Of a stretch of DNA of 64,000 bases, positions 10,025 through 62,357 are shown piece by piece. Made by a program: the position numbers and the translations under genes. Where the stretch lies: contig JAUYMA010000004.1 of assembly GCA_030698805.1 (NCBI GenBank), positions 19,065 through 83,064 of the forward strand, in the 5' to 3' direction. The notes under the pieces are model-generated. The model searched no databases, had not been told where the DNA came from, and worked only from the letters and a program-made list of their open reading frames with translations. Origin of the DNA: Nanobdellota archaeon (GTDB lineage: Archaea; Nanobdellota; Nanobdellia; Pacearchaeales; GW2011-AR1). Every line of letters begins with the position of its first letter. Position 1 is the stretch's first letter.

Positions 10025-10032
10025 CTTAAAAA
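10025..10032 (+). promoter_or_regulatory. TATA-like box (CTTAAAAA) at -31..-24 of tRNA-Met
   Basis: Same spacing as at all other tRNA genes in the window. Confidence 0.45.
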
Positions 10033-10055
10033 CCCTATAGCTTTCAAATTTTTAA

Positions 10056-10127
10056 GGCTCTGTAACTCAGTGGTAGAGTGCGGCTCTCATGAGGCCGAAG
10101 CCGGGAGTTCAATTCTCCCCAGAGCCA
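10056..10127 (+). tRNA. tRNA-Met (anticodon CAT; elongator or Ile2-type, not initiator)
   Basis: Manual cloverleaf: acceptor GGCTCTG/CAGAGCC, D ACTC/GAGT, anticodon stem CGGCT/GGCCG, loop CTCATGA, T arm GGGAG-TTCAATT-CTCCC, discriminator A. G1-C72, so not an archaeal initiator. No encoded CCA. Confidence 0.9.
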
Positions 10128-11378
10128 TTACTTCTCTTTTACTCTAATAAATAATAAAAATGAAGCTACAAAAAAGAACAGCAAAGAAAACATTGCAAGT
10201 CTCTGATTTCCCATAAATGAAGAAATGGCTCCAAATAAAAGGGGACCTATAACTGCAGATACCTTGCTTGCGAAACTATTGAACCCGAATAAACTAAACC
10301 TTTCTTTCTCCGGAATAATATTGCTATACCACGATCTTGCTACCGACTGGCTCCCTCCTATTGTCAAGCCTGTAAGGAAAGCGATTATGTAAGCAAATAA
10401 AGTATTTTTGGGAGGCGCTATAACCAGGAGAATCACAACCATAATCCAAACAACGATTGAAAAAAGCAATATTCTTTTCTGTCCCTTTTTATCTGCAAGA
10501 GCTCCAAATAAAAGGGAGGCCGGAATTGCTACAACTTGAACAATAAGAGCGATTATGACTATTTCTGAGATAGACAATAAAAGAGTTTGTTTTGCGTAAA
10601 GGGAAGTAAAAGCAAATATGGTCACTAGTGCGTCATTCATTAAATAAAATGCAATTAAAAATAAAGAGATATTTTTCCGTCTCTTAAAGCCTTTCAGAGT
10701 ATCGAGCACTTTTCTGAAACTGATTTTTACCAAATTATAAAGGCTTTCTTTTCCTCTTTTGTGATTATCCTTGAGAGAAATAAATAAGGGGATAGAAAAT
10801 ATAATGAAAAATAATGCAGTAAGTGGAAAAGTTAATTTATATAATATAGGAGATTCATATCCTCGAGAATAGAAAGGGTGCAATAATAACATCACGATAA
10901 TCCCTCCCAAATAACCCAGGCTATATCCCAATCCTGATATTTTTCCAGTAGATTTCTTAGAGGCAAAATGTGCAAGAAAAGAGTCGTAAATGGACTGGGC
11001 CAATAAGAAGAAAAAATAGGATATAATAAATATAATTGAAGCAAAAATTAAGCTATTAGAATTAGTAAAGAAAAGTAGAGAGGCTGTAAAAGCCGCAAGG
11101 AGTGTCACGGCTATAAATTTTCTTTTCTTCTTAGACTCATAATCCATAACTGCCCCTACCAGTGGAGAGAGCAATCCTGCTAAAACCACTGCGATACCTC
11201 CGATCAGCCCCCAATAAAAATCTCCTAAAGCAGGCCCTGCTATGACTTCCTTGTAATATAGGGGGAAAACTAGGCTTAATATTAGAACAGAATAAGCTGA
11301 GTTGCCAAAGTCAAAAAAAGCCCATGATAGGGCTTTCTTCTTATCAGTTTTTCCAAAAAACCTTTCAAGGACTCTCAT
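10128..11378 (-). CDS. MFS transporter (UMF1/Atg22-like)
   Basis: 416 aa with about 12 hydrophobic segments. N-terminal LSWAFFDFGNSAYSV motif is typical of this MFS subfamily. Confidence 0.75.
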   Translation of the reverse strand: MRVLERFFGKTDKKKALSWAFFDFGNSAYSVLILSLVFPLYYKEVIAGPALGDFYWGLIGGIAVVLAGLLSPLVGAVMDYESKKKRKFIAVTLLAAFTASLLFFTNSNSLIFASIIFIISYFFFLLAQSIYDSFLAHFASKKSTGKISGLGYSLGYLGGIIVMLLLHPFYSRGYESPILYKLTFPLTALFFIIFSIPLFISLKDNHKRGKESLYNLVKISFRKVLDTLKGFKRRKNISLFLIAFYLMNDALVTIFAFTSLYAKQTLLLSISEIVIIALIVQVVAIPASLLFGALADKKGQKRILLFSIVVWIMVVILLVIAPPKNTLFAYIIAFLTGLTIGGSQSVARSWYSNIIPEKERFSLFGFNSFASKVSAVIGPLLFGAISSFMGNQRLAMFSLLFFFVASFLLFIRVKEK

Positions 11379-11402
11379 AAAAAATCCAGCACAAATAAGT
11401 TT

Positions 11403-11903
11403 TTAACTCTTAGCCCAAACTTTTCTCTTTCCGGTTCTTAAGTAAATGTCTAACATCTCCAACTCTTCATAAATGCCGGCTATAAGGTCATAATTTTTAG
11501 CCTCTTCCAGATTTACCCATGCTAGTTCTGTCAGAGCTTTGGCCAGCTTAACTTCCCCTTCTTTTGCCTCCGCATATAAACTGATGATCAAGCAGGGAAT
11601 GCCATCCGAGCGCGTATAAACCATACTTGTGATATACCCTATATTTTGAATGTCTAAATCTGTTTCTTCTTTTATTTCCCTAGCTAGAACCTCCTCAACA
11701 ACATTGTACCAATGCTCTTCAGTATCTTTCTTCCTTAAGGCATAATCTAAAACCTTGAGCTTCCCTCCTGGGACAGTCCATTTCCCAGGAAAAGCAGGCT
11801 CCCATTCTGCCCTTTTTGCAATAAGATATTTGCCGTCTTTTACCACTATTCCCGTTACAACAATGTAATGAGCTTGATTCTTATCGTACTTTATTTCATC
11901 CAT
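11403..11903 (-). CDS. Nudix hydrolase (intact Nudix box with insertion)
   Basis: PGGKL...(insert)...VLAREIKEETDLDI carries the RE-x-x-EE-x-G/D catalytic signature. Confidence 0.8.
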   Translation of the reverse strand: MDEIKYDKNQAHYIVVTGIVVKDGKYLIAKRAEWEPAFPGKWTVPGGKLKVLDYALRKKDTEEHWYNVVEEVLAREIKEETDLDIQNIGYITSMVYTRSDGIPCLIISLYAEAKEGEVKLAKALTELAWVNLEEAKNYDLIAGIYEELEMLDIYLRTGKRKVWAKS

Positions 11904-11954
11904 TTCAAATTACCATAATTTTTATATATAAATTCTAGCTCAAAAAATTTGACT

Positions 11955-12560
11955 ATGGAAAAGAAAATACTTTCTTTATTCCTTTTTAATAAAGAATTAA
12001 AGTTTAGCGAAATAGAAAAGCAGCTCTCAATTAGATCGAACAAATTAGCTTATCATCTGCATAACCTTATAAAAAAAGAGATATTAATCAAAACCGGAGA
12101 GGCCTATAAATTGAGTGATGCATCGGAAAATATTATTCCTTACTTATCAGAAAATCAATCCCCTCTTCCAGTCTTGCTCATTCATCTAGGGAACAAAAAT
12201 AAGGCTTTCTTGTATAAAAGAGAAAAAAGGCCATATAAAGATTACCTCTCTCTTCCAGGCGGGAGACTCCTTAATGGAGAGTCAATTATTGAGGCGGCAA
12301 AGAGAATAATGCTAAAAAAATTCAATATAAGAATTTTGTCCCCTAAAATAAAATTAGTTTCGCTGGAGCATGTAAAAACTAGGGGAAGAACCGTTTATTC
12401 CTTCCTGCTTATTTTGATTAAAGCCGAAACAAAAGAGAAAATTTCATTCTTTAATATAGATAAAAATAAGAAAAAGATAATTCAAAGCGATTACTTTCTA
12501 ATAAAATCGCAGGGCCAAAATAACTTGAATGTCAAAGTGTTAGTATCACGAAATTATTAA
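11955..12560 (+). CDS. wHTH (ArsR/MarR-like) domain fused to a degenerate Nudix domain; putative ligand-sensing regulator
   Basis: N-terminal LKFSEIEKQLSIRSNKLAYHLHNLIKKEILIK (wHTH). C-terminal LSLPGGRLLNGESIIEAAKRIMLKKFNI has G-x5-E-x7-R, but the REx2EE glutamates are replaced by IMLKK. Start moved to ATG 11955 (the track uses TTG 11949). Confidence 0.6.
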   Translation: MEKKILSLFLFNKELKFSEIEKQLSIRSNKLAYHLHNLIKKEILIKTGEAYKLSDASENIIPYLSENQSPLPVLLIHLGNKNKAFLYKREKRPYKDYLSLPGGRLLNGESIIEAAKRIMLKKFNIRILSPKIKLVSLEHVKTRGRTVYSFLLILIKAETKEKISFFNIDKNKKKIIQSDYFLIKSQGQNNLNVKVLVSRNY

Positions 12561-12582
12561 GAAAACATTTTATAGGCAATAA

Positions 12583-13386
12583 TTATGCCTTTTCACCATG
12601 CAAGGCTTTTCGCAATAATTGACGGTTTACTTCTTCTCTTCGCAGATCAGAAGGGAACAAAACATCCCAAACCGACTTTCTTTCTTTTTTATCGCTTAAA
12701 ACCGAGCTTAACTTCCTTATCTCTTTAGCGAATCTAGACCTCTTATTATAAACTGAAATAGGCTTTCTATGAAAGAGGGCTTTTAATCCAGTAGAATCTT
12801 CTGGAATCCTAGCCACTACTGGCAAATCCATCACTACTTCGATATCCTGCAAATTTATCTCGTATCTTGGATTTTTTATTTTATTCAAGATGATGCCATA
12901 AACTTTCTTTCCCCTTTGCTTGGCAATCTTAGCAGCTCTTAAAGAACAACTTAAAGTAGGATAATCAGGAGTAGAAACAATAAACAATCCATCTGAAGCA
13001 AGTACTGTAGAAAGAATTTCATCATTTACATTAGGAGAGGAATCAATAATTATAAAATCGTAATCTCTTTTTACTGTTTTGAGCCGGTCTTTAAGCTTTA
13101 GCATATTAAATTTCCCATTATAAAAATAACTTCCAGGCACCACATCAACGCCGAATCTACTGTGGATGGTATCACTTAATCTCACCCTCCCAGCCAAAAC
13201 ATCATGGATAGTCGATTCTGGTTCCACAATATCCATGTGTAATCCTAAATTTGGGGCAGAATAATTTGCATCGACAAGGAGAACTTTCTTATCGTGTATG
13301 ATGGACAAGGCAGAAGCCAATGAAGCAGAAATGGTTGTTTTACCAACTCCTCCTTTTATAGAAATCATCCCTATCACCTTACTCAT
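12583..13386 (-). CDS. MinD/ParA-family P-loop ATPase
   Basis: Deviant Walker A SIKGGVGKTTISASLA, Walker B-like FIIIDSSP, 267 aa. Confidence 0.8.
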   Translation of the reverse strand: MSKVIGMISIKGGVGKTTISASLASALSIIHDKKVLLVDANYSAPNLGLHMDIVEPESTIHDVLAGRVRLSDTIHSRFGVDVVPGSYFYNGKFNMLKLKDRLKTVKRDYDFIIIDSSPNVNDEILSTVLASDGLFIVSTPDYPTLSCSLRAAKIAKQRGKKVYGIILNKIKNPRYEINLQDIEVVMDLPVVARIPEDSTGLKALFHRKPISVYNKRSRFAKEIRKLSSVLSDKKERKSVWDVLFPSDLRREEVNRQLLRKALHGEKA

Positions 13387-13434
13387 AATATTATTATTGA
13401 AAATCTATTTAAAAGTGTTTCTACTCCCCTATTG

Positions 13435-13725
13435 ATGAAAAAACCGCTTATAAAGGATCCAGATTTAAGAACTGCGATAAATGAAGCTGACATAAACTTC
13501 AAAGGCCCCTCATTACGGGGGATAAGGGAAAAGCAACAAGCGTTAGATAAAGCTAGAGAATGGTACTGGGAACAGGCAAGGAGATTAGAAAGATATCATG
13601 AAAAAGCTTCTGATGAGACTCTTGGGCCTAAAATAGGCCATTTACTAGAAAATCAATATAGTAATATAAAATCAGTTATAAATGATCAATTCCGCGATTC
13701 TGTAAAAGAAAGAAGGCATTATTGA
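13435..13725 (+). CDS. hypothetical protein
   Basis: 96-aa ORF from ATG 13435, charged and helical-looking. No motif recognised. Confidence 0.3.
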   Translation: MKKPLIKDPDLRTAINEADINFKGPSLRGIREKQQALDKAREWYWEQARRLERYHEKASDETLGPKIGHLLENQYSNIKSVINDQFRDSVKERRHY

Positions 13726-13726
13726 G

Positions 13727-13797
13727 TGGACCCGCCGAGAATCGAACTCGAGTCTATCCCATGCCATGGGATCATCTTACCACTGGACCACGGGCCC
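13727..13797 (-). tRNA. tRNA-Ala (anticodon GGC)
   Basis: Reverse complement GGGCCCG...CGGGTCC-A with the G3:U70 Ala identity pair. Anticodon stem ATCCC/GGGAT, loop ATGGCAT, T arm TCGAG-TTCGATT-CTCGG. Confidence 0.85.
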
Positions 13798-13820
13798 TTC
13801 AAAATCTATGAAAAAGGCCC

Positions 13821-13828
13821 ATTATAAA
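13821..13828 (-). promoter_or_regulatory. TATA-like box (TTTATAAT) at -31..-24 of tRNA-Ala
   Basis: Fixed spacing shared by all nine tRNA genes. Confidence 0.45.
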
Positions 13829-13835
13829 TTTAATG

Positions 13836-14399: not shown

Positions 14400-14430
14400 C
14401 CTCTTTTATTTCCTTAAGAGCCTTGACAAA

Positions 14431-15354
14431 TTAACTTTTCTCGGCAGCAGCAACCTTTGCTCTTAATTTGTCTTCTAATTTAAGCTTCTCGATTAGTTCC
14501 TTATATCTATTCCTGATAGTTACTTCTGTAATGCCTGCAACATCTGCAACTTCTCTCTGAGTTTTCTTCTCGTCATTCATCAATGCAGCTACGTATAATG
14601 CCGCGGCTGCAACTCCTGCCGGGCCTCTCCCGGAAGTAAGCTCTGATATGTCTGCTTTTTTCAGTATTCTAAGCGCTTCATTTTGAGCCTTTGGAGATAA
14701 GTGTAAAATTGAGGAAAATCTTGAAACATAATCTTTGGGAGAGCTGGGAGTAACTTTGATCCTCAGTTTTCTCACTATAAATCGATATGTTCTGCCAATT
14801 TCTTTTCTCTCAACATCAGATGCAGCTGCTATTTCATCTAAAGTTCTGGGAATATTATAGCTTCTGCAAGCGGCATAAATGCATGCGGCAATTACCGATT
14901 CCATACTTCTACCTCTGACAAGTCCTCTTTGCAATACGAAATTGTAAACTCTTGAAGACTCATCTCTTACTACTGAAGGCAAACTTAAGAAACTAGCGAC
15001 TCTCCTCAATTCAGCCATTGCAAGCCTAAGGTTTCTTTCGATAGATGTAGAAACTCTTTCCTGCCATTTTTTTAATCTTAAGAATTTTCTAGTCTGCCCT
15101 GCTTCTAATTTGTAGATATCAGATATCTCGCCTACATTGGTAGTAAGCCCTTTATCAAACTTTTGTAGAGAAATAGGCGCGCCCCCTCTTCCTTTTTTAT
15201 CGCTTTTATCAAACTGCCCCCCTGCATCCTGGCCAGTATCCACCATCTTTTCTTCGACGATAAGGCCGCAATCATTGCAAATGATCTCGCCTTTTTGATC
15301 ATCATATGTGAGGCTGACACTTCCACATTCCGGGCATCTTCTTACGTAAGTCAT
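14431..15354 (-). CDS. tfb: transcription initiation factor B (TFB/TFIIB)
   Basis: N-terminal zinc ribbon CPECGS...CNDCG followed by two cyclin-fold repeats (e.g. GRSMESVIAACIYAACR, GPAGVAAAALYVAA). Confidence 0.95.
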   Translation of the reverse strand: MTYVRRCPECGSVSLTYDDQKGEIICNDCGLIVEEKMVDTGQDAGGQFDKSDKKGRGGAPISLQKFDKGLTTNVGEISDIYKLEAGQTRKFLRLKKWQERVSTSIERNLRLAMAELRRVASFLSLPSVVRDESSRVYNFVLQRGLVRGRSMESVIAACIYAACRSYNIPRTLDEIAAASDVERKEIGRTYRFIVRKLRIKVTPSSPKDYVSRFSSILHLSPKAQNEALRILKKADISELTSGRGPAGVAAAALYVAALMNDEKKTQREVADVAGITEVTIRNRYKELIEKLKLEDKLRAKVAAAEKS

Positions 15355-15411
15355 AGAAATTCACCAAAAGGTTTAAAAATCTATGCTTTGAACATTATTT
15401 AAAGCTTTCGG

Positions 15412-15780: not shown

Positions 15781-15814
15781 AAAAATACTGTTAAAAGTTA
15801 GTTTAAATATCTTT

Positions 15815-16520: not shown

Positions 16521-17021
16521 CTAATAAACTTCGATAGGAAGTATAATTCTCTGATCATTTCCATCATTTACTTCTATAGAAATATATATTATCGACCCAG
16601 GTTGAGGTTTTGCAAAATTCTTATTAAAAAACTCATTAAGACTGCTCCTAGCTTCTCGATTAATTTGGATCTGACTCTCAATAGATAATTGAATTGTATT
16701 TTCTTCAATAACCGGGTCTGTCTCAGGCACTTCAATAACCGGGTCTGTCTCAACCACTTCAATAACTTCCTCAGATTCTTCAAAGGGAGGAATAGAGCCA
16801 TACCCTGATCCGTATCCTGAACCGTAACCAGATCCATAACCTGAGCCATACCCTGAGCCATAATCTTCCCCATAACCGCTTATAACAAAAGAAGTAAGAT
16901 TGGAATCAAAAAAAGAGAATAGGAAAAATAGGAAAAATAAAAAACTAGCTATAAATGTAAAAAAGTAGTCAAACTTATTCCTCTTATTTGCTTTATTTTT
17001 CTTCATTATATTAACCCCCAT
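16521..17021 (-). CDS. anchored/secreted repeat protein with (GYGS)n tract and tandem VIEVxETDP repeat
   Basis: TM FFFTFIASFLFFLFFLFSFF, then GYGEDYGSGYGSGYGSGYGSGYGSGYGS, then VIEVVETDPVIEVPETDPVIEEN. An alternative start at Met6 (17006) would give a 1-nt TAATG overlap with the upstream gene. Confidence 0.55.
   Translation of the reverse strand: MGVNIMKKNKANKRNKFDYFFTFIASFLFFLFFLFSFFDSNLTSFVISGYGEDYGSGYGSGYGSGYGSGYGSGYGSIPPFEESEEVIEVVETDPVIEVPETDPVIEENTIQLSIESQIQINREARSSLNEFFNKNFAKPQPGSIIYISIEVNDGNDQRIILPIEVY
16704..16766. repeat. 27-nt tandem repeat (2 full copies plus a 9-nt partial), coding
   Basis: ttcaataaccgggtctgtctcaggcac / ttcaataaccgggtctgtctcaaccac / ttcaataac. Encodes VIEV(P/V)ETDP units. 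Confidence 0.85.
16795..16880. repeat. imperfect 12-nt tandem repeat, coding for (GYGS)n
   Basis: Units such as gccataccctga / tccgtatcctga / accgtaaccaga / tccataacctga / gccataccctga are visible directly. Confidence 0.8.
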
Positions 17022-18119: not shown

Positions 18120-18557
18120 TTAGAAACGAAAGATTTCTATAAATTTCTCAATAAATTTTCTAGTTGAGGAATTAAGATTTAAAGTGAAAGATTTCCGAGG
18201 ATTAATCCAAACATATTCCTGGAGTTCCTCGTTTAATTTTACTTCATTGCTTTTGGCTTTAGCGGAGTAGTTAAGAAAGATCATATGTTTCTTCGAATTA
18301 TAGTCTTCAGGAAATATGCTTTCATCTACGCTGATCAATTGAATATTCTCAATGTCTAAATGGGTTTCTTCCTTAACCTCTCTTTTCACACCTTCCTCCA
18401 AGCTTTCTCCCAAATCAAGCTTTCCTCCTGGAACTACCCACTGATCTTTCCATTTATGCGACCTAGCAAGGAAGATATTGTTTTCATGATTATAAATGAT
18501 AACTCCCATAATCACTCTAGGAACCTCTGAATTTTGCTTGCGAGAATTTTCAGTCAT
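18120..18557 (-). CDS. Nudix hydrolase
   Basis: Canonical Nudix box PGGKLDLGESLEEGVKREVKEETHLDI. Confidence 0.8.
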   Translation of the reverse strand: MTENSRKQNSEVPRVIMGVIIYNHENNIFLARSHKWKDQWVVPGGKLDLGESLEEGVKREVKEETHLDIENIQLISVDESIFPEDYNSKKHMIFLNYSAKAKSNEVKLNEELQEYVWINPRKSFTLNLNSSTRKFIEKFIEIFRF

Positions 18558-19453
18558 ATGATAATTGAGTCCAAGTCTTTAACTAAGATTGAATTCTTGA
18601 AGAAATTTTTAGCCTCATTAAGAATTATTTTAGGATTATGTTCGTACCGCTGCGATAGATGGGTCAAGACCAACTTCTTTGCGCTTGCTTTCTTGGCAAT
18701 TTGCGCGGCTTCTTGAGCAGTCAAATGCTTATATTCTTTAGCTTGCCCGATTTCTGTAGAAGAAAAACTAGCTTCGCTCACCAATAAATCTGCTCCTTTG
18801 GCAATAGAAAAGGCTTTATCATTTAAAGCGCTATCCAAGATGAAAACTACCTTCTTGCCTTTATCTGTATAAGAAACGTCCTTAACTTTAATCTTCTTTC
18901 CATTAAAGACAATATCTTTGCCCTGTTGAAGGTCCTTCAATAAAGGAGAATTAGGTAATTTTAGCTTCTTTAATTTACTTTTATCAAGTCTCCTTTTATC
19001 TTTGAGAATAAAGCTATATGCATTGCAAGGTATTCCATGTTCCATATTTTGGGCCTCTAATAAGAACTCATTGCGGTCAATAAAAACGCCTGGACCAATT
19101 TCATTTACTTCCACTCTTATCTTTAATCCAAATATCATAGATTCAACTAAAGAAAACATTTTTTTAGTGCCTTTGGGCCCATATATCTTGAGAACTCCTT
19201 TATATTCAGACATGGCGAGGGTCTGCAACAGACCTGGCAAGCCTAAAACGTGATCTCCATGCCAATGCGTTATTAAAATTCTTGTAAGTTTGCAAGGACT
19301 TATGCCTGCATAGCGAAATTGCCTTTGTGTGCCTTCTCCGCAATCTATTAGAATATTCTCGTCTCTAAAACTTAACAAAATAGAAGTATGATTCCTCATC
19401 TTAGTAGGAATTGCATTACCTGTTCCTAAAAATGTAAGCTTAATGTTTTCCAT
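18554..19453 (-). CDS. rnz: ribonuclease Z (tRNA 3' endonuclease, metallo-beta-lactamase fold)
   Basis: LTFLGTGNAIPT...ITHWHGDHVLGLPGLL (HxHxDH). Start trimmed to MENIKLTFLG (ATG 19453). Confidence 0.9.
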   Translation of the reverse strand: MENIKLTFLGTGNAIPTKMRNHTSILLSFRDENILIDCGEGTQRQFRYAGISPCKLTRILITHWHGDHVLGLPGLLQTLAMSEYKGVLKIYGPKGTKKMFSLVESMIFGLKIRVEVNEIGPGVFIDRNEFLLEAQNMEHGIPCNAYSFILKDKRRLDKSKLKKLKLPNSPLLKDLQQGKDIVFNGKKIKVKDVSYTDKGKKVVFILDSALNDKAFSIAKGADLLVSEASFSSTEIGQAKEYKHLTAQEAAQIAKKASAKKLVLTHLSQRYEHNPKIILNEAKNFFKNSILVKDLDSIII

Positions 19454-19547
19454 ATGCCAGAAAACATATTTTAATTTATATATGTTGCTAAACCTGCTAA
19501 CTTTCTCAAGAAGCAAGGTTTAAAAGAAATAAAGTCCTTAAGTTATA

Positions 19548-19898: not shown

Positions 19899-19902
19899 TT
19901 TT

Positions 19903-20307: not shown

Positions 20308-20369
20308 ATAGATAACAAGAAAAGAAGTATAAAAACTCTCGCCCTTCAATAAATCACAGGATAACAACG

Positions 20370-20377
20370 TTTAAATA
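20370..20377 (+). promoter_or_regulatory. TATA-like box (TTTAAATA) at -31..-24 of tRNA-Arg(TCT)
   Basis: Fixed spacing shared by all nine tRNA genes. Confidence 0.45.
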
Positions 20378-20400: not shown

Positions 20401-20475
20401 GCTCCCATAGCTCAGCCTGGATAGAGCACCGGACTTCTAATCCGGGGGTCGCAGGTTCAAATCCTGTTGGGAGCG
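20401..20475 (+). tRNA. tRNA-Arg (anticodon TCT)
   Basis: Acceptor GCTCCCA/TGGGAGC, D GCTC/GAGC, anticodon stem CCGGA/TCCGG, loop CTTCTAA, T arm GCAGG-TTCAAAT-CCTGT, discriminator G. Confidence 0.9.
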
Positions 20476-20485: not shown

Positions 20486-20572
20486 ATTAAAAAGGATTTG
20501 AATATTGAATAGGAGTTATTGAACCTCGGTTCAATCTGTCGGGAGTGTTTATTCACATTAAAATTCTAAAAG

Positions 20573-20580
20573 TTTAAAAG
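20573..20580 (+). promoter_or_regulatory. TATA-like box (TTTAAAAG) at -31..-24 of tRNA-Cys
   Basis: Fixed spacing shared by all nine tRNA genes. Confidence 0.45.
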
Positions 20581-20603: not shown

Positions 20604-20676
20604 GCGCACGTGGCACAATGGTTACTGCGGTCGGTTGCAGCCCGACTTCTTCCAGGTTCGATTCCTGGCGTGCGCT
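20604..20676 (+). tRNA. tRNA-Cys (anticodon GCA)
   Basis: Acceptor GCGCACG/CGTGCGC, anticodon stem GTCGG/CCGAC, loop TTGCAGC, T arm CCAGG-TTCGATT-CCTGG, discriminator U as expected for Cys. Confidence 0.9.
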
Positions 20677-20887: not shown

Positions 20888-20944
20888 AGTTATTTTTTAA
20901 TTTATTTTATTTTTAGAATAGTTTAAATAGAAGTTTTTTGAGTT

Positions 20945-22507: not shown

Positions 22508-22521
22508 TCCCTTGAGTTAAA

Positions 22522-22529
22522 TTTAAAAC
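22522..22529 (+). promoter_or_regulatory. TATA-like box (TTTAAAAC) at -31..-24 of tRNA-Leu
   Basis: Fixed spacing shared by all nine tRNA genes. Confidence 0.45.
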
Positions 22530-22552: not shown

Positions 22553-22636
22553 GCGGGGATGCCAGAGTGGTCTAATGGGACGGATTTAGGCTCCGTTGGC
22601 TCAGTGCCTTCCTAGGTTCAAATCCTAGTCCCCGCA
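22553..22636 (+). tRNA. tRNA-Leu (anticodon TAG), long variable arm
   Basis: Acceptor GCGGGGA/TCCCCGC, anticodon stem ACGGA/TCCGT, loop TTTAGGC, variable arm TGGCTCAGTGCCTTC, T arm CTAGG-TTCAAAT-CCTAG, discriminator A. Confidence 0.9.
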
Positions 22637-33484: not shown

Positions 33485-33626
33485 TCTTTTCCCTCTTATT
33501 GTTTCGAGTTTTCTCAACTTTGTCTTTAATAAGCCTTAAAATTTCGCTATTTATATCCTGGTTAATACTTCCTTTAAACCTTTCCCACAGGGATTCATCC
33601 TCTATAAGCAGAAGATACTTTTTCAT
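33477..33626 (-). CDS. 49-aa ribbon-helix-helix-like (CopG/Arc-like) mini-protein
   Basis: Hand translation: MKKYLLLIEDESLWERFKGSINQDINSEILRLIKDKVEKTRNNKREKND. Strand-helix-helix pattern with a basic tail. agagg lies 6-10 nt upstream of the ATG. 8-nt ATGATTAA overlap with the 617-aa gene. Confidence 0.4.
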   Translation of the reverse strand: MKKYLLLIEDESLWERFKGSINQDINSEILRLIKDKVEKTRNNKREKND

Positions 33627-34811: not shown

Positions 34812-34882
34812 TGGCCCCACCAAGGATCGAACTTGGGCATGGTCCACGTCAAAGACCCGGTCTACCATTAGCCTATGGGGCC
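34812..34882 (-). tRNA. tRNA-Val (anticodon GAC)
   Basis: Reverse complement: acceptor GGCCCCA/TGGGGCC, anticodon stem GGTCT/GGACC, loop TTGACGT, T arm CCAAG-TTCGATC-CTTGG, discriminator A. One C:A mismatch in the D stem. Confidence 0.8.
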
Positions 34883-34905
34883 CAATTCTGTCAATTTACT
34901 TCCCT

Positions 34906-34913
34906 ATATAAGC
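34906..34913 (-). promoter_or_regulatory. TATA-like box (GCTTATAT; CTTATATA if shifted 1 nt) at -31..-24 of tRNA-Val
   Basis: Fixed spacing shared by all nine tRNA genes. Confidence 0.4.
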
Positions 34914-34969
34914 TTTTTTAACGGCTGTAAATCAATAAGCTTTTAATATATGATAAAATAGTAGTAAAG

Positions 34970-41307: not shown

Positions 41308-41314
41308 AAAAACC

Positions 41315-41322
41315 TTTAAAAA
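41315..41322 (+). promoter_or_regulatory. TATA-like box (TTTAAAAA) at -31..-24 of tRNA-Thr
   Basis: Fixed spacing shared by all nine tRNA genes. Confidence 0.45.
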
Positions 41323-41345: not shown

Positions 41346-41419
41346 GCCTCCATAGCTCAGTCGGTTAGAGCGGCAGTTTTGTAAACTGTAGGTCGGGGGT
41401 TCAATTCCCCCTGGAGGCT
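41346..41419 (+). tRNA. tRNA-Thr (anticodon TGT)
   Basis: Acceptor GCCTCCA/TGGAGGC, D GCTC/GAGC, anticodon stem GCAGT/ACTGT, loop TTTGTAA, T arm GGGGG-TTCAATT-CCCCC, discriminator U. Confidence 0.9.
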
Positions 41420-46882: not shown

Positions 46883-46968
46883 TTTATTGAAAAAGGAGGA
46901 ATTTCTATCCTCGTTATGAGAGTCATTATAACTAATATATTTATAAAGATCTTCAAATTAAAAAATGA

Positions 46969-49900: not shown

Positions 49901-52194
49901 TAATAAATAAAGGGAGAAATGGATATGACCCTTACATGACTTTAGTTGTTTATCATGGAAACGGCTCAATATATTGGGAAAGAACCTTAGGAGAAGAATT
50001 TCTGAATGGAAGTTTTGGCACCTCTTTAAATGTTCTGCCCACGATAGGGGATTTGGATGGAGATAAAAGTCCAGATATTGTAGTGATGCTAGCAGACTAC
50101 ACCAAAGCTTCGGCTGAAGGGGGAAGAGTTTATGCAGTCAATGCCACAGGTAGCATAAAACCAGGATACCCTATAACTGTAGCAAATGATAGGTTGCCCC
50201 AGATAGTAGTAGCTGATTTGGATGGAGATAAAAGTGATGAGATTATAATCCAGACTAACTTCCTCTCAAATTCTGCATATCCTGAAGAAATAATTATTAT
50301 TAGTAATAAGTCCATAAAGAATAGATGGAATCTGCCTTACGGAAATTTAGGCAATGATGAAATGGTCCCTACCATTGGTAATTTTGATAGTGATGATGAT
50401 TTAGAAATTGTTTCTCTAAGAACTATCGGGTGGCCACCCACTACTGATTATTGGCAAGGGTATACAAATCTGCTTTTTGGTAGGACTACCACTAAAGGCG
50501 CGATCTACGTCTACAACCTAGATGGAAGCATAGTAGAAGGTTGGCCACTAGCAATGGGGGGCCCTACTGGCTTTTTCGCAACCCCCTCCATAGGAGATTT
50601 GGATGGAGACGGCACTTCAGAAATTATAGCAAGTTACATTAATTATTCTACAGGCACCTATGTAACTGCATATAAAAGAAATGGAGAGATAGTAGAGGGA
50701 TTTCCATTCCTTATTGAATTAATTGACTTGCCACCTTACACCGTAAAAGTAATAAGAAGTCCTGAAAAATCATTTACATTGAATGATCTAGATGGAGATA
50801 GAAAATTAGAGATTATATTTACTACAAGTGGGAGTTATGAAATAGGGTACCCTGTTTATGTCTTATATTCTAATGGGACGCTTATGAGCGGATGGCCAAA
50901 TGCTGCGGAAGGCGGAGCATATAAAAATTATGCGCCCACTATAGCTGATGTTGATGGAGATGGAAATCTAGATATATTGGCTACTGCAGGAAGTGTATTT
51001 CCGATAGCTAGATATGATCCTTACAGAGATAAACTCAACCTTTCACTTGAAGGAGGAATATGGGCCTGGCATTTAAACGGGACAAGAATAATGGGATATC
51101 CTAAGGGGTTGCATTACAATTCCTTTGCCCCCCCTACTATAGCTGATGTTGATGGAGATGGGCTAATGGACCTAATCGGCTCTTCCGCTTACGATTATGA
51201 CCTTATAAGGATGGAACCTAAAGGATATGGAAGTCTACATGTTTGGGAAACAAATGTAACTTATCCTCTATCACACGAACAATGGGGAATGTTCAGAAAA
51301 GATGCGGGAAGAACTGCTTGTTATGAATGCGAAAATAAAGATTTTGAGGGAACGACTCAATTAAGAGAATCTCAAGATGTGGAAGAAGAGTTTACAATTA
51401 AGAAAGGAGAAAGAGTTAAGCTTATTTTTAAAGAAACTGTGAATTTAACTAGGATAAAGAAAAATCCTGCTCTAATGAATAATATTATTTTATCCCAGAA
51501 TAAAGTTAGTATTAATACTGAAAGAGTTCCTGAATTAAATAAATCTGCAGAATTAACATTTAAGGATGTAAGGGTGAATGAACCTTATATATTGTATAAC
51601 AACCAATCTTGTCCTGCTGAGATTTGCACTTCCCAGTACAATTCTTCTAGTCGAATTCTGATTTTAAATGTGAATCATTTCTCAACTTTTGAAGTGATAG
51701 AGTCCCCAATATGTGGAGATGGAATTTGTCAGGCCGCAATAGAAGAGTCTTGTTCGAGTTGCTCTTTAGATTGTGGAGAATGCCTCTCTATAGGGGACAG
51801 CCCTCCTTCTTCAGGGAGAGGTAGTAGATCAAGTAGCAGAAGTGGAGAATTATGTATCCCAAATGAAAAATGCACCTTAGGGGCCTGTATTGATGAAATA
51901 CAAGTAAAAGAGTGTAGGGACCTCAATAATTGCGAGGGATCTTTAGTTACTCAAGAAAACTTAGGCTGTAACATTTTCTTCGAGCCTCTGAGCGAAGAAA
52001 TAGAAGGGGATAGCAAGCAAGAGGATACAACAGTTCTAGAAGGATGGGGAGAGATAGAAGAGAAGCCAAATATGTTAAATTATATAAAAATAGGAATTGC
52101 TGTAGGCATTGTGATGCTAATCGCAATTATTTTAATAATATATATAAAGAGAAAACAATCTCCTTCTATTTATCAAAACGATGCTGAAGAATAA
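46969..52194 (+). CDS. giant membrane-anchored subtilisin-like serine protease (S8) with LamG-like insertion, FG-GAP/VCBS repeat region and Cys-rich stalk
   Basis: Signal peptide. Catalytic Asp AVIDTGIDYRHPDL (codon at 47695), His HGTHVAGTISA (47812), Ser GTSMATPHVAGIAAL (48961). About 200 aa of LamG-like sequence between His and the SMSLGG oxyanion segment. Eight D-x-D-G-D repeats (49860-51240). CGDGICQ...CSSCSLDCGEC. C-terminal TM plus KRKQ. Confidence 0.85.
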   Translation: MWEKRIVMYFLFAIFFISGAMAQSPDINLSELNEFIPYSYIIEFKEPSILEKEVLLDEQVERIKKQSQILTEQGRESPAKLLSNQASQIEEKKESIIGKHQEVLEEEHEKALRDIRIKLDNKNPTISGKVVYSSKLWLGNVIRRFTGYNIYDYPTEKISEKEYYRVFNGIVLNNVSINELEKINKSTYVSRIYPNMRVKSLMVDSIHLVNASVLWERDSQGERCEDSGKECLTGKGIKIAVIDTGIDYRHPDLGGCFGEGCKVEGGYDFVNRDSDPLDDQGHGTHVAGTISANRKVIKEGAIYITPTLHWEFNNSFVDNIQDIEGKNQGNVTFINEGFGLKGIEFNNGSIRINSDSLNKNSFTISAWVKPMDSKQGGIFEKTIGERVNSQYLLFIENGRYYFRIATPQGIRSISYPLSSHKWEHLAGVYNGSAIKLYQNGILVNSTKAGNILTGLGPAYIGKLGGGIYPLRGKIDEVIFHDRALSQKEIILLSDLQAEKSINSELKIGIKGVAPDSILYAYKVLGADGGGNFEDVISGIERAVDPNNDFNFNDSVDIISMSLGGPGTPDDPVSKAADNAVSKGVIVVVAAGNSGPSKETIGSPGMARKVITVGAINKSYSLAYFSSRGPVLWGGQGLIKPDILAPGVAIYSTTPEGKYEAFSGTSMATPHVAGIAALMKQAHKDWAPEEIKMALKGNAINVESLSPNEQGNGIMNGWASVYSQKPSKVFLSISKKKGDLEISAELPKEFTAENIALYYSEGYGEKEWAEMILEEKDLKKGKLSKSIDAFKLKDGPYAFRIKTREGSSFGQDDAIIFIDNLNISGIGNYEIYRPGEINKIYLNIEALEHTYKDFKNYIIEYSLNNSNLEWKTQGLMLCEPGGEGISYEMVGNDLCERRRGYERFFIWNTSEIASGIYNLRLRVNYTHSQVEEQISYIYFDKDLKEGWPQRIYAGNYSTHAGDIVPIVFDLDKDGDQEIIINKGRNGYDPYMTLVVYHGNGSIYWERTLGEEFLNGSFGTSLNVLPTIGDLDGDKSPDIVVMLADYTKASAEGGRVYAVNATGSIKPGYPITVANDRLPQIVVADLDGDKSDEIIIQTNFLSNSAYPEEIIIISNKSIKNRWNLPYGNLGNDEMVPTIGNFDSDDDLEIVSLRTIGWPPTTDYWQGYTNLLFGRTTTKGAIYVYNLDGSIVEGWPLAMGGPTGFFATPSIGDLDGDGTSEIIASYINYSTGTYVTAYKRNGEIVEGFPFLIELIDLPPYTVKVIRSPEKSFTLNDLDGDRKLEIIFTTSGSYEIGYPVYVLYSNGTLMSGWPNAAEGGAYKNYAPTIADVDGDGNLDILATAGSVFPIARYDPYRDKLNLSLEGGIWAWHLNGTRIMGYPKGLHYNSFAPPTIADVDGDGLMDLIGSSAYDYDLIRMEPKGYGSLHVWETNVTYPLSHEQWGMFRKDAGRTACYECENKDFEGTTQLRESQDVEEEFTIKKGERVKLIFKETVNLTRIKKNPALMNNIILSQNKVSINTERVPELNKSAELTFKDVRVNEPYILYNNQSCPAEICTSQYNSSSRILILNVNHFSTFEVIESPICGDGICQAAIEESCSSCSLDCGECLSIGDSPPSSGRGSRSSSRSGELCIPNEKCTLGACIDEIQVKECRDLNNCEGSLVTQENLGCNIFFEPLSEEIEGDSKQEDTTVLEGWGEIEEKPNMLNYIKIGIAVGIVMLIAIILIIYIKRKQSPSIYQNDAEE

Positions 52195-52202: not shown

Positions 52203-52275
52203 TAGCCCCACCCGGATTCGAACCGGGGTCCCAGGCGCCAAAGGCCTGTATCCTTGACCACTAGACTATGGGGCT
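52203..52275 (-). tRNA. tRNA-Gln (anticodon TTG)
   Basis: Reverse complement: acceptor AGCCCCA/TGGGGCT (A1-U72), anticodon stem CAGGC/GCCTG, loop CTTTGGC, T arm CCCGG-TTCGAAT-CCGGG, discriminator A. Confidence 0.9.
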
Positions 52276-52298: not shown

Positions 52299-52306
52299 TT
52301 TATAAG
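52299..52306 (-). promoter_or_regulatory. TATA-like box (CTTATAAA) at -31..-24 of tRNA-Gln
   Basis: Fixed spacing shared by all nine tRNA genes. Confidence 0.45.
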
Positions 52307-52348
52307 AGTTTTGCTAATATTTATTAACAATTTAATGCACAAGACATC

Positions 52349-53865: not shown

Positions 53866-53870
53866 GTCAG

Positions 53871-56271: not shown

Positions 56272-56348
56272 TAAAATTCTAGAAAATCAGATCCTTTTAA
56301 ATTTTCTGATATTTGAAAGATTTTAATAGTATCGCCCCATAGAGTGTT

Positions 56349-56816
56349 ATGCCAAAAGTCAGCTCAGGATTACTGATGTATAAATTTCACCAAGGATTTT
56401 TAAAAGTCTTTTTGGTGCATCCTGGGGGTCCATTCTTTAAAGACAAAGATCTAGGATGGTGGAGTATCCCTAAAGGCGAGGTTGAAGAGGGGGAAAATTT
56501 ACTTCAGACTGCTATTAGAGAGATAGAAGAAGAAACAGGTATAATTCCAAAAGGTCCATACATAGAACTGGGGCAAATAAAGCAAAAGGCAGGTAAAATA
56601 GTAAATTGCTGGGCATTTGAAGGGGATTGGTCAGGCTTGTTGATATGCAAAAGCTGGGTAAGTCTGCCTGCAAGAAACGGGGCCTATATAAAATTCCCCG
56701 AAGTAGATAAGGCAGGATTTTTTCTAGTTGAAGAAGCAAAGAAGAAAATAAACCAGGCGCAAAAAGAATTAATAGAAAGATTAGAATCTAAGTTGCAAAT
56801 TCCCTCTGCTCTGTAA
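56349..56816 (+). CDS. Nudix hydrolase
   Basis: WWSIPKGEVEEGENLLQTAIREIEEETGI is an intact Nudix box. Confidence 0.75.
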   Translation: MPKVSSGLLMYKFHQGFLKVFLVHPGGPFFKDKDLGWWSIPKGEVEEGENLLQTAIREIEEETGIIPKGPYIELGQIKQKAGKIVNCWAFEGDWSGLLICKSWVSLPARNGAYIKFPEVDKAGFFLVEEAKKKINQAQKELIERLESKLQIPSAL

Positions 56817-57609: not shown

Positions 57610-57658
57610 AAAAACATATTGGCTTTACCTTTTTTAATGATTATTGCACGATGGAATA

Positions 57659-58972: not shown

Positions 58973-59021
58973 ATCCCTTAAAACCTTTAGGCATTTATTA
59001 AATTAACTCTTAAGAAAAAGA

Positions 59022-59687: not shown

Positions 59688-59789
59688 ATATCTATCTAGG
59701 GTCTTCCTATTAAAAGTTTTACTCTTAGCCACTTAAGGATAAATTCAGACTACAATCATTTTTATAAACCACTAATTAATTCTTATATT

Positions 59790-60350: not shown

Positions 60351-60352
60351 TT

Positions 60353-60526
60353 TCATGCCTTACCAAAAGCTAAAGCTGAACTAGCAATCTTCTCATAAAA
60401 TAGATCGTCAATACATTCAATTTCTTCGGATAGACTTACCTTACTCGAAGCGGAACTCTCTTCAAATTCTACATCGAGTAACTCATCTATACCTTCAATT
60501 TGTATTGTCTGCTGGGTTTTAGTCAT
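60353..60526 (-). CDS. 57-aa acidic hypothetical protein
   Basis: Hand translation: MTKTQQTIQIEGIDELLDVEFEESSASSKVSLSEEIECIDDLFYEKIASSALAFGKA. Perfect AGGAGG 8 nt upstream of the ATG. Confidence 0.35.
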   Translation of the reverse strand: MTKTQQTIQIEGIDELLDVEFEESSASSKVSLSEEIECIDDLFYEKIASSALAFGKA

Positions 60527-60584
60527 TTAAATACCTCCTATCTAATTTAATTATAGAGAATTTTCATTCTCCAAACGAAGAATT

Positions 60585-60743
60585 TTAATTAAAATTCTTT
60601 GTCATACCCTGATTAAACTCTCGCTCTGTGCTCATCCCTCTTGCAGGTTCCACTAAAAGCAAATAAGCTCCAAAGTAATAATTGCGCCAAACCTTTGCTT
60701 CTCGAGCTCTTCTTATCTCAACCGTTCTGTTTTTATTTCTCAT
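60585..60743 (-). CDS. 52-aa basic hypothetical protein
   Basis: Hand translation: MRNKNRTVEIRRAREAKVWRNYYFGAYLLLVEPARGMSTEREFNQGMTKNFN. GGAGGTG 4 nt upstream of the ATG. Confidence 0.35.
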   Translation of the reverse strand: MRNKNRTVEIRRAREAKVWRNYYFGAYLLLVEPARGMSTEREFNQGMTKNFN

Positions 60744-60907
60744 TTGCACCTCCGCCTCTAATAAATAGGTTATTTATTACTACGTTGCTAAACAAAAATC
60801 CCTAAGTGAGATAAAGAAGGGCAGTTCACAAATTTTAAAAACCGAATTTTAAGTCACCTTGAAAGTGGTACAGTAATGTTTAAAACCCTTCATTCCGAGA
60901 CTTTGGA

Positions 60908-61477
60908 ATGATTATAGAACATACTTTAGTATTGCTTAAACCTGATACTATCCAAAGGAGTATAATTGGAAAGATCGTGACTAAATTTGAAGATGCAGGT
61001 CTCAAAATTGTAGCAATGAAAATGCTATGGGCCTCTGAAGATCAAGTAGAAAGGCATTATCCCTTTGATGAATTATGGGCTAAGCAGGTATATGAGAAAA
61101 CAAAAAAAGTATATGAAGAAAGTGGGAAAAAATTCGAATATAAAGATCATGTAGAGCATGGACAAACCATAAGAAAATGGTTAATGGATTTCTTAAGAGA
61201 AGGGCCCATCTTAGCTATCGTTTTAGAAGGTCCGCATTCTGTAGAGATAGTTCGAAAGATGGTTGGATCGACAGAACCTAGACAAGCTGCCCCGGGTACC
61301 TTGAGAGGAGATTTTGCGGTAGTAGAGTCCTATGCCCTTGCCGATGCCAAAAAGCGCCCTCTGAGAAATCTTATTCATGCGTCAGATACCGTAGAGAATG
61401 CAAAGAGAGAAATTGCAGTATGGTTTGATAACAAAGAGATACAGAAGTATACGAAAGAACTTGATACGCATTTTTAA
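60908..61477 (+). CDS. ndk: nucleoside diphosphate kinase (long form with internal insertion)
   Basis: TLVLLKPDTIQRSIIGKIVTKFEDAGLKIVAMKM ... GTLRGDFA ... NLIHASD (active-site His). About 40 extra residues after the first third. Confidence 0.9.
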   Translation: MIIEHTLVLLKPDTIQRSIIGKIVTKFEDAGLKIVAMKMLWASEDQVERHYPFDELWAKQVYEKTKKVYEESGKKFEYKDHVEHGQTIRKWLMDFLREGPILAIVLEGPHSVEIVRKMVGSTEPRQAAPGTLRGDFAVVESYALADAKKRPLRNLIHASDTVENAKREIAVWFDNKEIQKYTKELDTHF

Positions 61478-61515
61478 TAAGAAATATTTATTAACTTTCC
61501 TTATGAAATAGCGAC

Positions 61516-62232
61516 ATGTATGAATATCTAATCGGGGCGATTATAGTTTTTCTTGTTTGGACAATATTCTTCTTCGTAAGAAAAGATCTACGAAAGCCCA
61601 TAGTCTGGACGGGTACATTTTATTTGACATTTAATCTTATTCTTGCCATAATGTGGCATGTTGTGGATAGATTTGTAGATATTGGCCAGCCCATTGTGCC
61701 TTCCTATTGGAACCCTCCTACATTGTTCAGCCTCACTCGCATAACTGGATTTATGGGAATAGAAGATGTTCTTTTCATCTTTTTCATGGGGGGAATAGGG
61801 GCCGCAACATATGAGATATTTCTCCATAAAAAAATCAATTTAAAAAGAACGTATCGGCCTCATTTCATCGCGCTTACAATGACTTTTATATTATTTTTTG
61901 TTTTTGCATATGCTCTTCCTATAAACATTATTTATCCTTATAGTTTCGCAACAATTTGCGGAGCAGTAATAGTTCTATTTGAACGTAGAGATCTTATTAA
62001 GCATTCGTTATTGGGGGGAATAGTCTTTGTGGTAATGTATTTAATTGCCTATTTTTTATATAATCTGGCTTTTCCGGACTTTATTACGAGCTTTTACAGT
62101 CAAGAAGTTCTAGAAGGCATATCTCTCTTAGGCATCCCTTTTGAAGAATTGCTATATGCTTTTAGTTTTGGACTTTTGTGGGCTCCATTATATGAATATG
62201 CTCATGGCGAAAAGTGTGTAGATGAAAAGTAA
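61516..62232 (+). CDS. polytopic membrane protein, possibly a lycopene-cyclase-domain (CrtYc/d-like) protein
   Basis: 238 aa with about 7 TM segments. Two copies of a hPhEE-like motif (MGIEDVLFIFF, GIPFEELLYAF). Tentative. Confidence 0.45.
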   Translation: MYEYLIGAIIVFLVWTIFFFVRKDLRKPIVWTGTFYLTFNLILAIMWHVVDRFVDIGQPIVPSYWNPPTLFSLTRITGFMGIEDVLFIFFMGGIGAATYEIFLHKKINLKRTYRPHFIALTMTFILFFVFAYALPINIIYPYSFATICGAVIVLFERRDLIKHSLLGGIVFVVMYLIAYFLYNLAFPDFITSFYSQEVLEGISLLGIPFEELLYAFSFGLLWAPLYEYAHGEKCVDEK

Positions 62233-62252
62233 AAATTGCTTCAACCATTAAG

Positions 62253-62260
62253 CCTAAAAA
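62253..62260 (+). promoter_or_regulatory. TATA-like box (CCTAAAAA) at -31..-24 of tRNA-Arg(GCG)
   Basis: Fixed spacing shared by all nine tRNA genes. Confidence 0.4.
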
Positions 62261-62283
62261 CTCCCTAATCTCCTTTATCTTAT

Positions 62284-62357
62284 GCCCCTATAGTTCAGCC
62301 TGGATAGAACACGGCCTTGCGGAGGCTGTAACCTCGGTTCAAATCCGAGTAGGGGCG
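62284..62357 (+). tRNA. tRNA-Arg (anticodon GCG)
   Basis: Acceptor GCCCCTA/TAGGGGC, D GTTC/GAAC, anticodon stem CGGCC/GGCTG, loop TTGCGGA, T arm CTCGG-TTCAAAT-CCGAG, discriminator G. Confidence 0.9.

Follow-up and report, generated by a model that had tools for sequence, protein, structure and literature searches.

We showed that each of the nine transfer RNA (tRNA) genes in a 64-kb stretch of DNA from a Nanobdellota archaeon (analysed at its full length and referred to below as the window) has a promoter of its own, placed at one fixed distance from the mature 5' end of the tRNA. Calibrated against leaderless messenger RNAs (mRNAs) of the same window and clade, this distance points to transcription that starts at tRNA position -2 (positions are counted from the first nucleotide of the tRNA, +1). 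The best model, to which we assign a probability of about 0.55, is that such a start is followed by removal of the mini-leader of 2 nucleotides (nt) by a 5'-processing activity. Rigid, near-leaderless tRNA promoters with a predicted standard leader of 2 nt, in a clade that lacks the gene of the RNase P protein Rpp29 in its ribosomal operon, appear to be new.

ARAGORN and the Rfam tRNA model, both run on the window, agreed on exactly nine tRNA genes. Their 5' ends were set by the 7-bp acceptor-stem pairing anchored on the T-loop; for tRNA-Leu this pairing and the Rfam match place +1 at 22553 (vs 22552 by ARAGORN). From the ends fixed independently in this way we recovered the same nine octamers that an earlier reading, made from the sequence alone, had placed at -31..-24: CTTAAAAA (Met-CAT), TTTATAAT (Ala-GGC), TTTAAATA (Arg-TCT), TTTAAAAG (Cys-GCA), TTTAAAAC (Leu-TAG), GCTTATAT (Val-GAC), TTTAAAAA (Thr-TGT), CTTATAAA (Gln-TTG) and CCTAAAAA (Arg-GCG). 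For tRNA-Val a better register is provided by CTTATATA at -30..-23, which agrees with the 1-nt shift that this sequence-only reading had allowed. It was also right in stating that all nine tRNAs begin with a purine (G in eight, A in tRNA-Gln) and that none of the genes encodes CCA or contains an intron.

A loose pattern that fits each of the nine octamers matches 0.65% of the intergenic positions, and within the nine 80-nt upstream regions it was found nine times at -31, once at -39 and once at -30. The chance of nine out of nine at a single offset is ~2e-20, or ~1e-18 after correction for 60 offsets. Every octamer is directly preceded by a purine-rich heptamer resembling the B recognition element (BRE). 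The nine octamers are true TATA boxes, each belonging to a tRNA promoter of its own, and these promoters have the features typical of archaeal promoters read by the TATA-binding protein (TBP) and transcription factor B (TFB): a purine-rich BRE, an octamer rich in A+T some 25-30 nt before the start and a pyrimidine-purine initiator. TFB, which reads the BRE and helps to set the start site, is itself encoded in the window.

Three sets of related loci were compared with the window: 80 loci around the glycyl-tRNA synthetase gene (L002-L081), four ribosomal-operon loci obtained by protein look-up (L082-L085) and 80 more ribosomal-operon loci from metagenomes (L086-L165). When the window and the Logan contig L001, which reaches ~2 kb beyond the window and has no tRNA gene there, are included, the DNA surveyed amounts to ~2.07 Mb. 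Judged by glycyl-tRNA synthetase, the closest genomes are metagenome-assembled genomes (MAGs) labelled Nanoarchaeota, Pacearchaeota or Woesearchaeota (identity up to 76%), and the window belongs to a DPANN archaeon of the Pacearchaeota/Woesearchaeota type. Part of the window is present in a groundwater metagenome assembly, and the sequence was found in three metagenome runs, all of them DNA.

The start site was calibrated on the TATA-to-ATG distance of leaderless mRNAs of the window and the clade. With a weight matrix derived from the octamers we searched the region in front of the first ATG in each long open reading frame (ORF), and in the window a single sharp peak was obtained at -29..-22 (17-18 ORFs with an octamer at -29 at a strict threshold, ~25 at a looser one). 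In the window and close relatives taken together the octamer lies exactly at -29 in 298 of 690 TATA-bearing genes, with 66 at -30 and 24 at -28. Position -1 of the -29 genes is a pyrimidine in 71%, and C accounts for 18%, vs 6-11% at neighbouring positions; such an initiator is common in archaea. Judged from these statistics, genes with the octamer 29 nt before the A of the ATG are genes of leaderless mRNAs, and the genome appears overwhelmingly leaderless, with an unusually rigid promoter geometry. A leaderless mRNA cannot start downstream of the A of its ATG. Counted from the octamer's first base, the start distance was set at 29 nt (octamer+29).

The same 29-nt rule also picks out true start codons, namely those of glycyl-tRNA synthetase (20951), RadA (63779) and, probably, RNase Z (19453). 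Two head-to-head gene pairs were observed (11903-11955 and 13386-13435) whose start codons are 49-52 nt apart; the two genes of each pair appear to share one bidirectional palindromic TATA region (TTTTTATATATAAAT and CTATTTAAAAG, respectively).

In tRNA genes the octamer is found most often at -31 (8/9 in the window and 28 of the 71 TATA-bearing tRNA genes of close relatives, where nine others are at -32, eight at -30 and 14 at -29), so that 2 nt more separate the TATA box from tRNA +1 than from the base on which an mRNA begins. Combined with the octamer+29 start of the mRNAs, this spacing predicts a tRNA leader of 2 nt. The consensus in front of the tRNA is Y(-3) A(-2) T(-1), followed by G(+1). 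The -31 class comprises 33 genes, all of them with a purine at -2 (29 A) and 29 with a pyrimidine at -3 (11 C). A purine occupies -3 in 5/9 genes of the -32 class (vs 4/33 in the -31 class) and -1 in 6/9 genes of the -30 class (vs 10/33), and in the -29 class -2 is a purine in only 8/14 and -1 a pyrimidine in 11/14. The purine shifts together with the TATA box across the spacing classes, and what is constant in mRNA and tRNA genes is a purine at octamer+29 with a pyrimidine before it.

For all 67 tRNA promoters taken together, -2 is a purine in 59 (p = 5e-11), and T occurs there in only 6/67, vs 42% at position -2 of mRNAs (p = 2e-9). When mRNA-derived frequencies at the three positions upstream of the start were applied, a start at -2 exceeded a start at +1 by 16.4 log-likelihood units. 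These data suggest that most tRNA transcripts probably begin pppA-U-G..., with a 2-nt leader. Within the clade the predicted leaders range from 0 to 3 nt, about one fifth of the genes being truly leaderless; in the window eight genes are predicted to have leaders of 2 nt and tRNA-Val one of 1 nt. The T at -1, found in 69% of the promoters, is retained in every spacing class, which suggests that the leader-cleaving activity recognizes it. U is favoured at this position by bacterial RNase P.

Another group of observations concerns tRNA genes of the relatives, whose arrangement differs from that in the window, where none of the nine is in tandem, has a long leader or begins with a pyrimidine. Tandems of tRNA-Arg(TCT) and tRNA-Cys were found in L007 (identical with L082, where they occupy ~2174-2325; also L083), L011 and L013. 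The tRNA-Cys of these tandems has no promoter of its own and its +1 is only 2-3 nt behind the Arg discriminator, in contrast to the window, in which tRNA-Cys has its own promoter and lies 127 nt behind tRNA-Arg(TCT). One of the tandems lies in the same MAG whose operon lacks Rpp29. In L040 (11571-11723) a tRNA-Tyr(GTA) with an 80-nt intron has C at +1 and TT at -2/-1, and its TATA box, ~29-30 nt upstream, leaves no purine at the expected start. Neither the purine at -1 that accompanies a pyrimidine +1 in tRNA genes of the Nanoarchaeum equitans type nor the lack of co-transcribed tRNAs is therefore seen in the relatives (L040 tRNA-Tyr and the Arg-Cys tandems, respectively). In more distant Woesearchaeota (L058, L064, L070, L071, L074) tRNA-Pro(TGG) has no TATA box and follows, after 15-20 nt, the stop codon of an ORF rich in Lys and Glu, which implies probable co-transcription with an mRNA; the promoter spacing of their other tRNA genes is variable, and the mRNA mode is -30.

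In about 11 tRNA genes of the relatives the first 8-20 nt are present a second time, as a direct copy 49-64 nt upstream, and in L030, L045 and L129 a canonical TATA box lies at -31 of this upstream copy, giving leaders of 49-64 nt. The copy may represent a duplication-created intron or a leader processed by the tRNA splicing endonuclease EndA. In these genes the two copies can pair via an AGCT palindrome into a bulge-helix-bulge, the cleavage of which would remove exactly one repeat; in the tRNA-Thr gene of L092 a 60-nt unit is repeated at least three times. The tandems, the long leaders and the C1 tRNA-Tyr require 5' processing in the relatives and, together with the tRNA-Pro genes of the more distant Woesearchaeota, argue that an activity which removes both very short and longer leaders probably exists in this lineage. 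The relatives are also rich in intron-containing tRNA genes, which are missed by ARAGORN without the intron option, including tRNA-Glu with introns of 114-127 nt (L031:14110-14311, L035:20194-20391, L042:20232-20422) and others of 116-151 nt overall (L026, L029, L012, L017).

The most obvious candidate for such an activity, RNase P, was sought in several ways. The only Rfam matches in the window are tRNAs, and no RNase P protein family was found in any of its ORFs. At gathering scores Rfam returned only tRNAs also from 28 related loci (713 kb; 777 kb with the window); because signal recognition particle (SRP) RNA and ribosomal RNA (rRNA) were equally missed, this null result for RNase P RNA carries little weight. 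Seed sequences of Rpp29, Rpp21, Pop5 and Rpp30 were validated against PDB and built into hidden Markov models, which gave nothing with E below 0.1 in the 2.07 Mb. A database search with Rpp29 yielded only methanogens and Thermococcales among the 120 matches listed, a scan of viral_contigs for RNase P proteins gave no match, and the proteasome operon, followed as a route to Pop5 and Rpp30, revealed the beta subunit alone (L040) with no RNase P subunit adjoining it. G+C-rich non-coding islands proved to be intron-containing tRNAs or a proline-rich ORF. In the literature consulted, RNase P of Pacearchaeota or Woesearchaeota is nowhere discussed.

The ribosomal operon was more informative. The gene order in the relatives is S3-L29-SUI1-S17-L14 (e.g. 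L082:10860-11643), and in all 66 loci that hold both SUI1 and S17 (within L082-L165) the two genes are adjacent (gap of at most 95 nt), with no Rpp29 between them. The same tool applied to a Methanocaldococcus control (L166) displayed L22-S3-L29-SUI1-Rpp29(PF01868)-S17-L14. Samanta et al. 2016 (PMC4919917) report SUI1-Rpp29-S17 as the most highly conserved of the RNase P protein gene loci, and the 'Nanoarchaeota' single-cell genome AAA011-L22 retains eIF-RPP29 there (PMC4919917, supplement). Nst1, a relative of N. equitans, keeps a shrunken RNase P (PMC3655853), and incomplete RNase P protein sets have been reported in several lineages that do have the enzyme. Since the slot is empty in 66/66 operons, the gene order indicates that the clade has lost or relocated Rpp29. 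It makes a reduced or absent RNase P more likely but is no proof of one.

HARP, a protein-only RNase P homologous to the Aquifex enzyme, is a PIN_5 (PF08745) protein of roughly 200 amino acids (aa); no PIN match was obtained in any ORF of the window. A conserved 237-aa protein of the relatives was considered as HARP and rejected: PIN_5 matched only 1 of its 23 members (E = 0.03), and there was no match to a PDB sequence or fold. This hypothetical protein of 232-238 aa (L082:4222-4935, with homologues in 33 loci) is encoded within ~1.5 kb upstream of the L3 ribosomal operon; it has 2468 homologues, all unnamed, and belongs to no Pfam family. The AlphaFold model, a confident one (pLDDT 89, pTM 0.89), gave no PDB match in Foldseek (best E = 0.12, TM at most 0.17), and the protein may possibly represent a new clade-specific fold.

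Several points weigh against a start at -2 followed by trimming. No RNase P RNA or protein, and thus no leader-removing enzyme, was found in the window or in the ~2.07 Mb of related loci, and every related operon (66/66) lacks Rpp29 between SUI1 and S17, where it canonically lies. The window sequence is known from DNA metagenome runs only, so the start site is inferred rather than mapped. YATG can also be read as an initiator with a pyrimidine at -1 and G at +1. The motif is similar to 'box B' (ATGC) in the stable-RNA promoters of methanogens, for which a start at the G was reported. In addition, the TATA-to-start distance in Haloferax has a play of ~1 nt (47% at the mode, 78% within 1 nt; PMC4983044).

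An alternative is leaderless transcription as in N. equitans, with a start at the G or A of +1, 31 nt from the octamer, mature tRNAs bearing a 5' triphosphate (or dephosphorylated), and no RNase P. This was proposed by the sequence-only reading, which raised RNase P independence as a question and correctly cited the fixed-distance precedent: in N. equitans, which has no RNase P, box A (TTTAAA) lies 26-27 nt upstream of the tRNA, transcription starts at +1 (or -1) and the 5' ends and their triphosphates have been verified (PMC3491384, PMC10100707). The proposal stands as regards genuine TATA boxes, rigid spacing and a start within 2 nt of +1. It gains further support from the fixed distance itself, from the purines at all nine 5' ends, from T(-1)/G(+1) as a valid pyrimidine-purine initiator, from the Rpp29 slot that is empty in the relatives and occupied in the Methanocaldococcus control, and from the failure to detect any RNase P RNA or protein subunit in the DNA surveyed; moreover, the 14/67 clade tRNA genes with the octamer at -29 would be leaderless under either model. 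The start at +1 was not supported, however. The same promoters start at octamer+29 on mRNAs, and selection for initiation at +1 predicts a tRNA spacing of 29 nt, whereas the mode is 31. In N. equitans the box-to-tRNA distance equals the start distance (to +1 or -1), while here octamer+29 would fall on tRNA -2. A leaderless start also fails to explain either the invariant purine at -2, the position of which follows the TATA box, or the pyrimidine at -3 with its enrichment in C, and it is at odds with the promoterless tandems, long leaders and C1 tRNA-Tyr (lacking a -1 purine) of the relatives. Besides, CCA is not encoded, unlike in tRNA-His of N. equitans (PMC10100707), and even Nst1 retains RNase P (PMC3655853). 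We therefore regard leaderless initiation as unlikely.

Mixed initiation, in which A(-2) and G(+1) would both be used so that some molecules of each tRNA are mature from the outset and the others need trimming, is rather improbable. Both purines of the YATG consensus follow pyrimidines, and archaeal start choice is flexible by ~1 nt (PMC4983044); the ATG context of mRNAs would then, however, give many starts inside the start codon. Still harder to sustain, and in our opinion very improbable, is the idea that the 2-nt leader is transcribed and kept, with tRNAs that work with a 5' AU extension and need no 5' processing. N. equitans does tolerate a 1-nt 5' extension on three tRNAs (PMC3491384, PMC10100707), and the DNA surveyed yielded no processing enzyme, but orthologous tRNAs of the clade differ in leader length (0-3 nt), the base at -1 does not pair systematically with the discriminator base, and the 50-60-nt leaders and tandem tRNAs of the relatives cannot stay unprocessed. 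That the octamers are chance A+T-rich sequence of a genome with 36% G+C has virtually no probability, given nine out of nine at one offset against 0.65% per intergenic position (p ~1e-18) and the presence of the motif at a fixed offset before hundreds of genes.

The preferred reading, a start at -2 with subsequent trimming, can be put into the following scheme. The promoter elements, their spacings and the sequence statistics are direct observations; where transcription starts, that there is a leader and that it is removed would follow from them. A rigid promoter geometry common to the whole genome and clade would keep the octamer at a constant position, and RNA polymerase would start on the purine 29 nt downstream of its first base. 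In protein genes this purine would be the A of the ATG, which yields a leaderless mRNA; in most tRNA genes it would be the purine at -2, a conserved A or sometimes G that follows a pyrimidine. Eight tRNAs of the window would thus be made as pppA/G-N-tRNA (consensus leader AU) and tRNA-Val with a 1-nt leader. The mini-leader would then be removed by a putative 5'-processing activity, most likely some form of RNase P, or else a 5'-3' exonuclease or a protein-only enzyme; trimming of some kind thus probably remains necessary. Finally, the 3' trailer would be trimmed by RNase Z and CCA added. RNase Z and EndA are both encoded in the window, where the sequence-only reading had identified them (Table 1).

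Table 1. Promoters, tRNA genes and other features considered in this study (window coordinates unless a related locus is named; four-letter contexts span -3..+1).
Feature	Position	Strand	Remarks
tRNA-Met promoter, BRE + TATA	10018..10032	+	CAACACG CTTAAAAA; octamer at -31..-24
tRNA-Met(CAT)	10056..10127	+	ARAGORN, Rfam 68.5 bits; predicted start A 10054 (-2); TAAG
tRNA-Ala promoter, BRE + TATA	13821..13835	-	CATTAAA TTTATAAT
tRNA-Ala(GGC)	13727..13797	-	ARAGORN, Rfam; predicted start A 13799 (-2); GAAG
tRNA-Arg(TCT) promoter, BRE + TATA	20363..20377	+	AACAACG TTTAAATA
tRNA-Arg(TCT)	20401..20475	+	ARAGORN, Rfam; predicted start A 20399 (-2); CATG
tRNA-Cys promoter, BRE + TATA	20566..20580	+	CTAAAAG TTTAAAAG
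tRNA-Cys(GCA)	20604..20676	+	ARAGORN, Rfam; predicted start G 20602 (-2); CGTG
tRNA-Leu promoter, BRE + TATA	22515..22529	+	AGTTAAA TTTAAAAC
tRNA-Leu(TAG)	22553..22636	+	Rfam ends, acceptor stem; predicted start A 22551 (-2); TATG
tRNA-Val promoter, BRE + TATA	34905..34920	-	best register CTTATATA at -30..-23
tRNA-Val(GAC)	34812..34882	-	ARAGORN, Rfam; predicted start G 34883 (-1), T before
tRNA-Thr promoter, BRE + TATA	41308..41322	+	AAAAACC TTTAAAAA
tRNA-Thr(TGT)	41346..41419	+	ARAGORN, Rfam; predicted start A 41344 (-2); TATG
tRNA-Gln promoter, BRE + TATA	52299..52313	-	CAAAACT CTTATAAA
tRNA-Gln(TTG), first base A	52203..52275	-	ARAGORN, Rfam; predicted start A 52277 (-2); TACA
tRNA-Arg(GCG) promoter, BRE + TATA	62246..62260	+	CATTAAG CCTAAAAA
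tRNA-Arg(GCG)	62284..62357	+	ARAGORN, Rfam; predicted start A 62282 (-2); TATG
Transcription factor B (TFB)	14431..15354	-	PF00382, PF08271; NF001658, 371 bits
RNase Z, tRNA 3' end maturation	18554..19516, likely ATG 19453	-	TIGR02651, 314.8 bits vs cut-off 292.95; Pfam
tRNA splicing endonuclease EndA, 170 aa	6019..6531	+	PF01974, PF02778; TIGR00324, 92 bits vs 59.6
EndA calibration octamer	5990..5997	+	CTTAAATA; exactly 29 nt before ATG
Glycyl-tRNA synthetase calibration octamer	20922..20929	+	TTTAAATA; 29 nt before ATG (20951)
eIF-1A calibration octamer	5091..5098	-	TTTAAAAA; 29 nt before ATG (5069)
1741-aa subtilase calibration octamer	46940..46947	+	TTTATAAA; 29 nt before ATG (46969)
Further calibration octamers	9494-9501; 60879-60886		29 nt before ATG
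tRNA genes with upstream 5'-end copy	Cys L005, L025, L030, L045; Ser L129, L135, L143, L159; Met L009, L054; Thr L092		related loci

A NUDIX hydrolase gene (18120-18557, minus strand) overlaps the end of the RNase Z gene by 4 nt. An RNase Z-NUDIX operon was considered as a 5'-end pathway and dropped, the adjacency being found in just 1 of 25 relatives. The window contains at least three clear NUDIX genes (11403-11903, 18120-18557, 56349-56816) and a weak one (11949-12560). Its other genes include those of eIF-1A, the ribosomal proteins S17e, S8e, S27e and S3Ae, SRP54, FtsY and RadA, and its gene content is archaeal. Very large, probably surface, proteins are encoded at 26125-31638 (minus strand, 1837 aa) and 31631-33517 (minus strand, 628 aa), neither of which could be assigned to a family. 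A third, also probably a surface protein, is the subtilase of 1741 aa at 46969-52194 (plus strand), which carries LamG and FG-GAP repeats. A small membrane-anchored protein with a perfect (GYGS)n repeat (GYGSGYGSGYGSGYGSGYGSGYGS) is encoded at 16521-17021 (minus strand).

It is tempting to go further and to propose that a large and widespread DPANN clade (of the Pacearchaeota/Woesearchaeota type, here from groundwater) has lost the canonical RNA-protein RNase P, its tRNA 5' ends being made by rigid promoter placement together with non-RNase-P trimming of 0-3-nt leaders, or by direct initiation. We consider this broader proposal doubtful; if true, it would represent a second, far commoner case of life without canonical RNase P. 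To our knowledge, RNase P is regarded as nearly universal, with N. equitans as the one accepted cellular exception. Clade-wide rigid tRNA promoters and an empty Rpp29 locus make the limits of RNase P reduction, and the removal of mini-leaders, testable in an abundant environmental lineage. The 29-nt rule, in turn, predicts transcription starts, true start codons and primary ends of tRNAs in genomes of unculturable organisms. It should be stressed that "fixed spacing" is not equivalent to "leaderless" unless the spacing has been calibrated on the same genome.

To conclude, the arrangement described here may be compared with several known systems. Stable-RNA genes of methanogens (Wich, Thomm and co-workers) combine a TTTATATA-type box A, ~25-30 nt upstream, with an ATGC-like motif that marks the start site in tRNA/rRNA genes; their initiation was mapped experimentally and their leaders vary, whereas the starts given here are predicted from the sequence. 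With N. equitans (Randau et al. 2008; PMC3491384, PMC10100707) the window shares one box A/TATA per tRNA at a strictly conserved short distance, purine 5' ends, and its origin from a DPANN archaeon with a small genome. In contrast to N. equitans, which supplies an extra purine at -1 where a tRNA has a pyrimidine at +1 (PMC3491384), the relatives have a C1 tRNA-Tyr without a -1 purine, as well as tandem tRNAs and long leaders; the spacing here is 2 nt longer than that of the genome's own leaderless mRNAs, a conserved initiator-like Y-A occupies -3/-2, and CCA is not encoded. Reduced RNase P systems (Pyrobaculum type T, Nst1; PMC3655853, PMC4919917), whose short or odd RNAs and incomplete protein sets escape standard searches, would fit the missing Rpp29; Nst1 and Thermoproteaceae, however, keep Rpp29, while here it is missing from the operon and no RNA was found. 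The leaderless-mRNA promoters of Haloferax, Sulfolobus and Thermococcus (PMC4983044, PMC4247193) have the same fixed BRE/TATA distance and a start on the A of the ATG after a pyrimidine. What distinguishes the promoters studied here from these is their unusual rigidity (298/690 at one offset) and the reuse of the same architecture for tRNA genes, in which the tRNA body begins where the G of the ATG would be.

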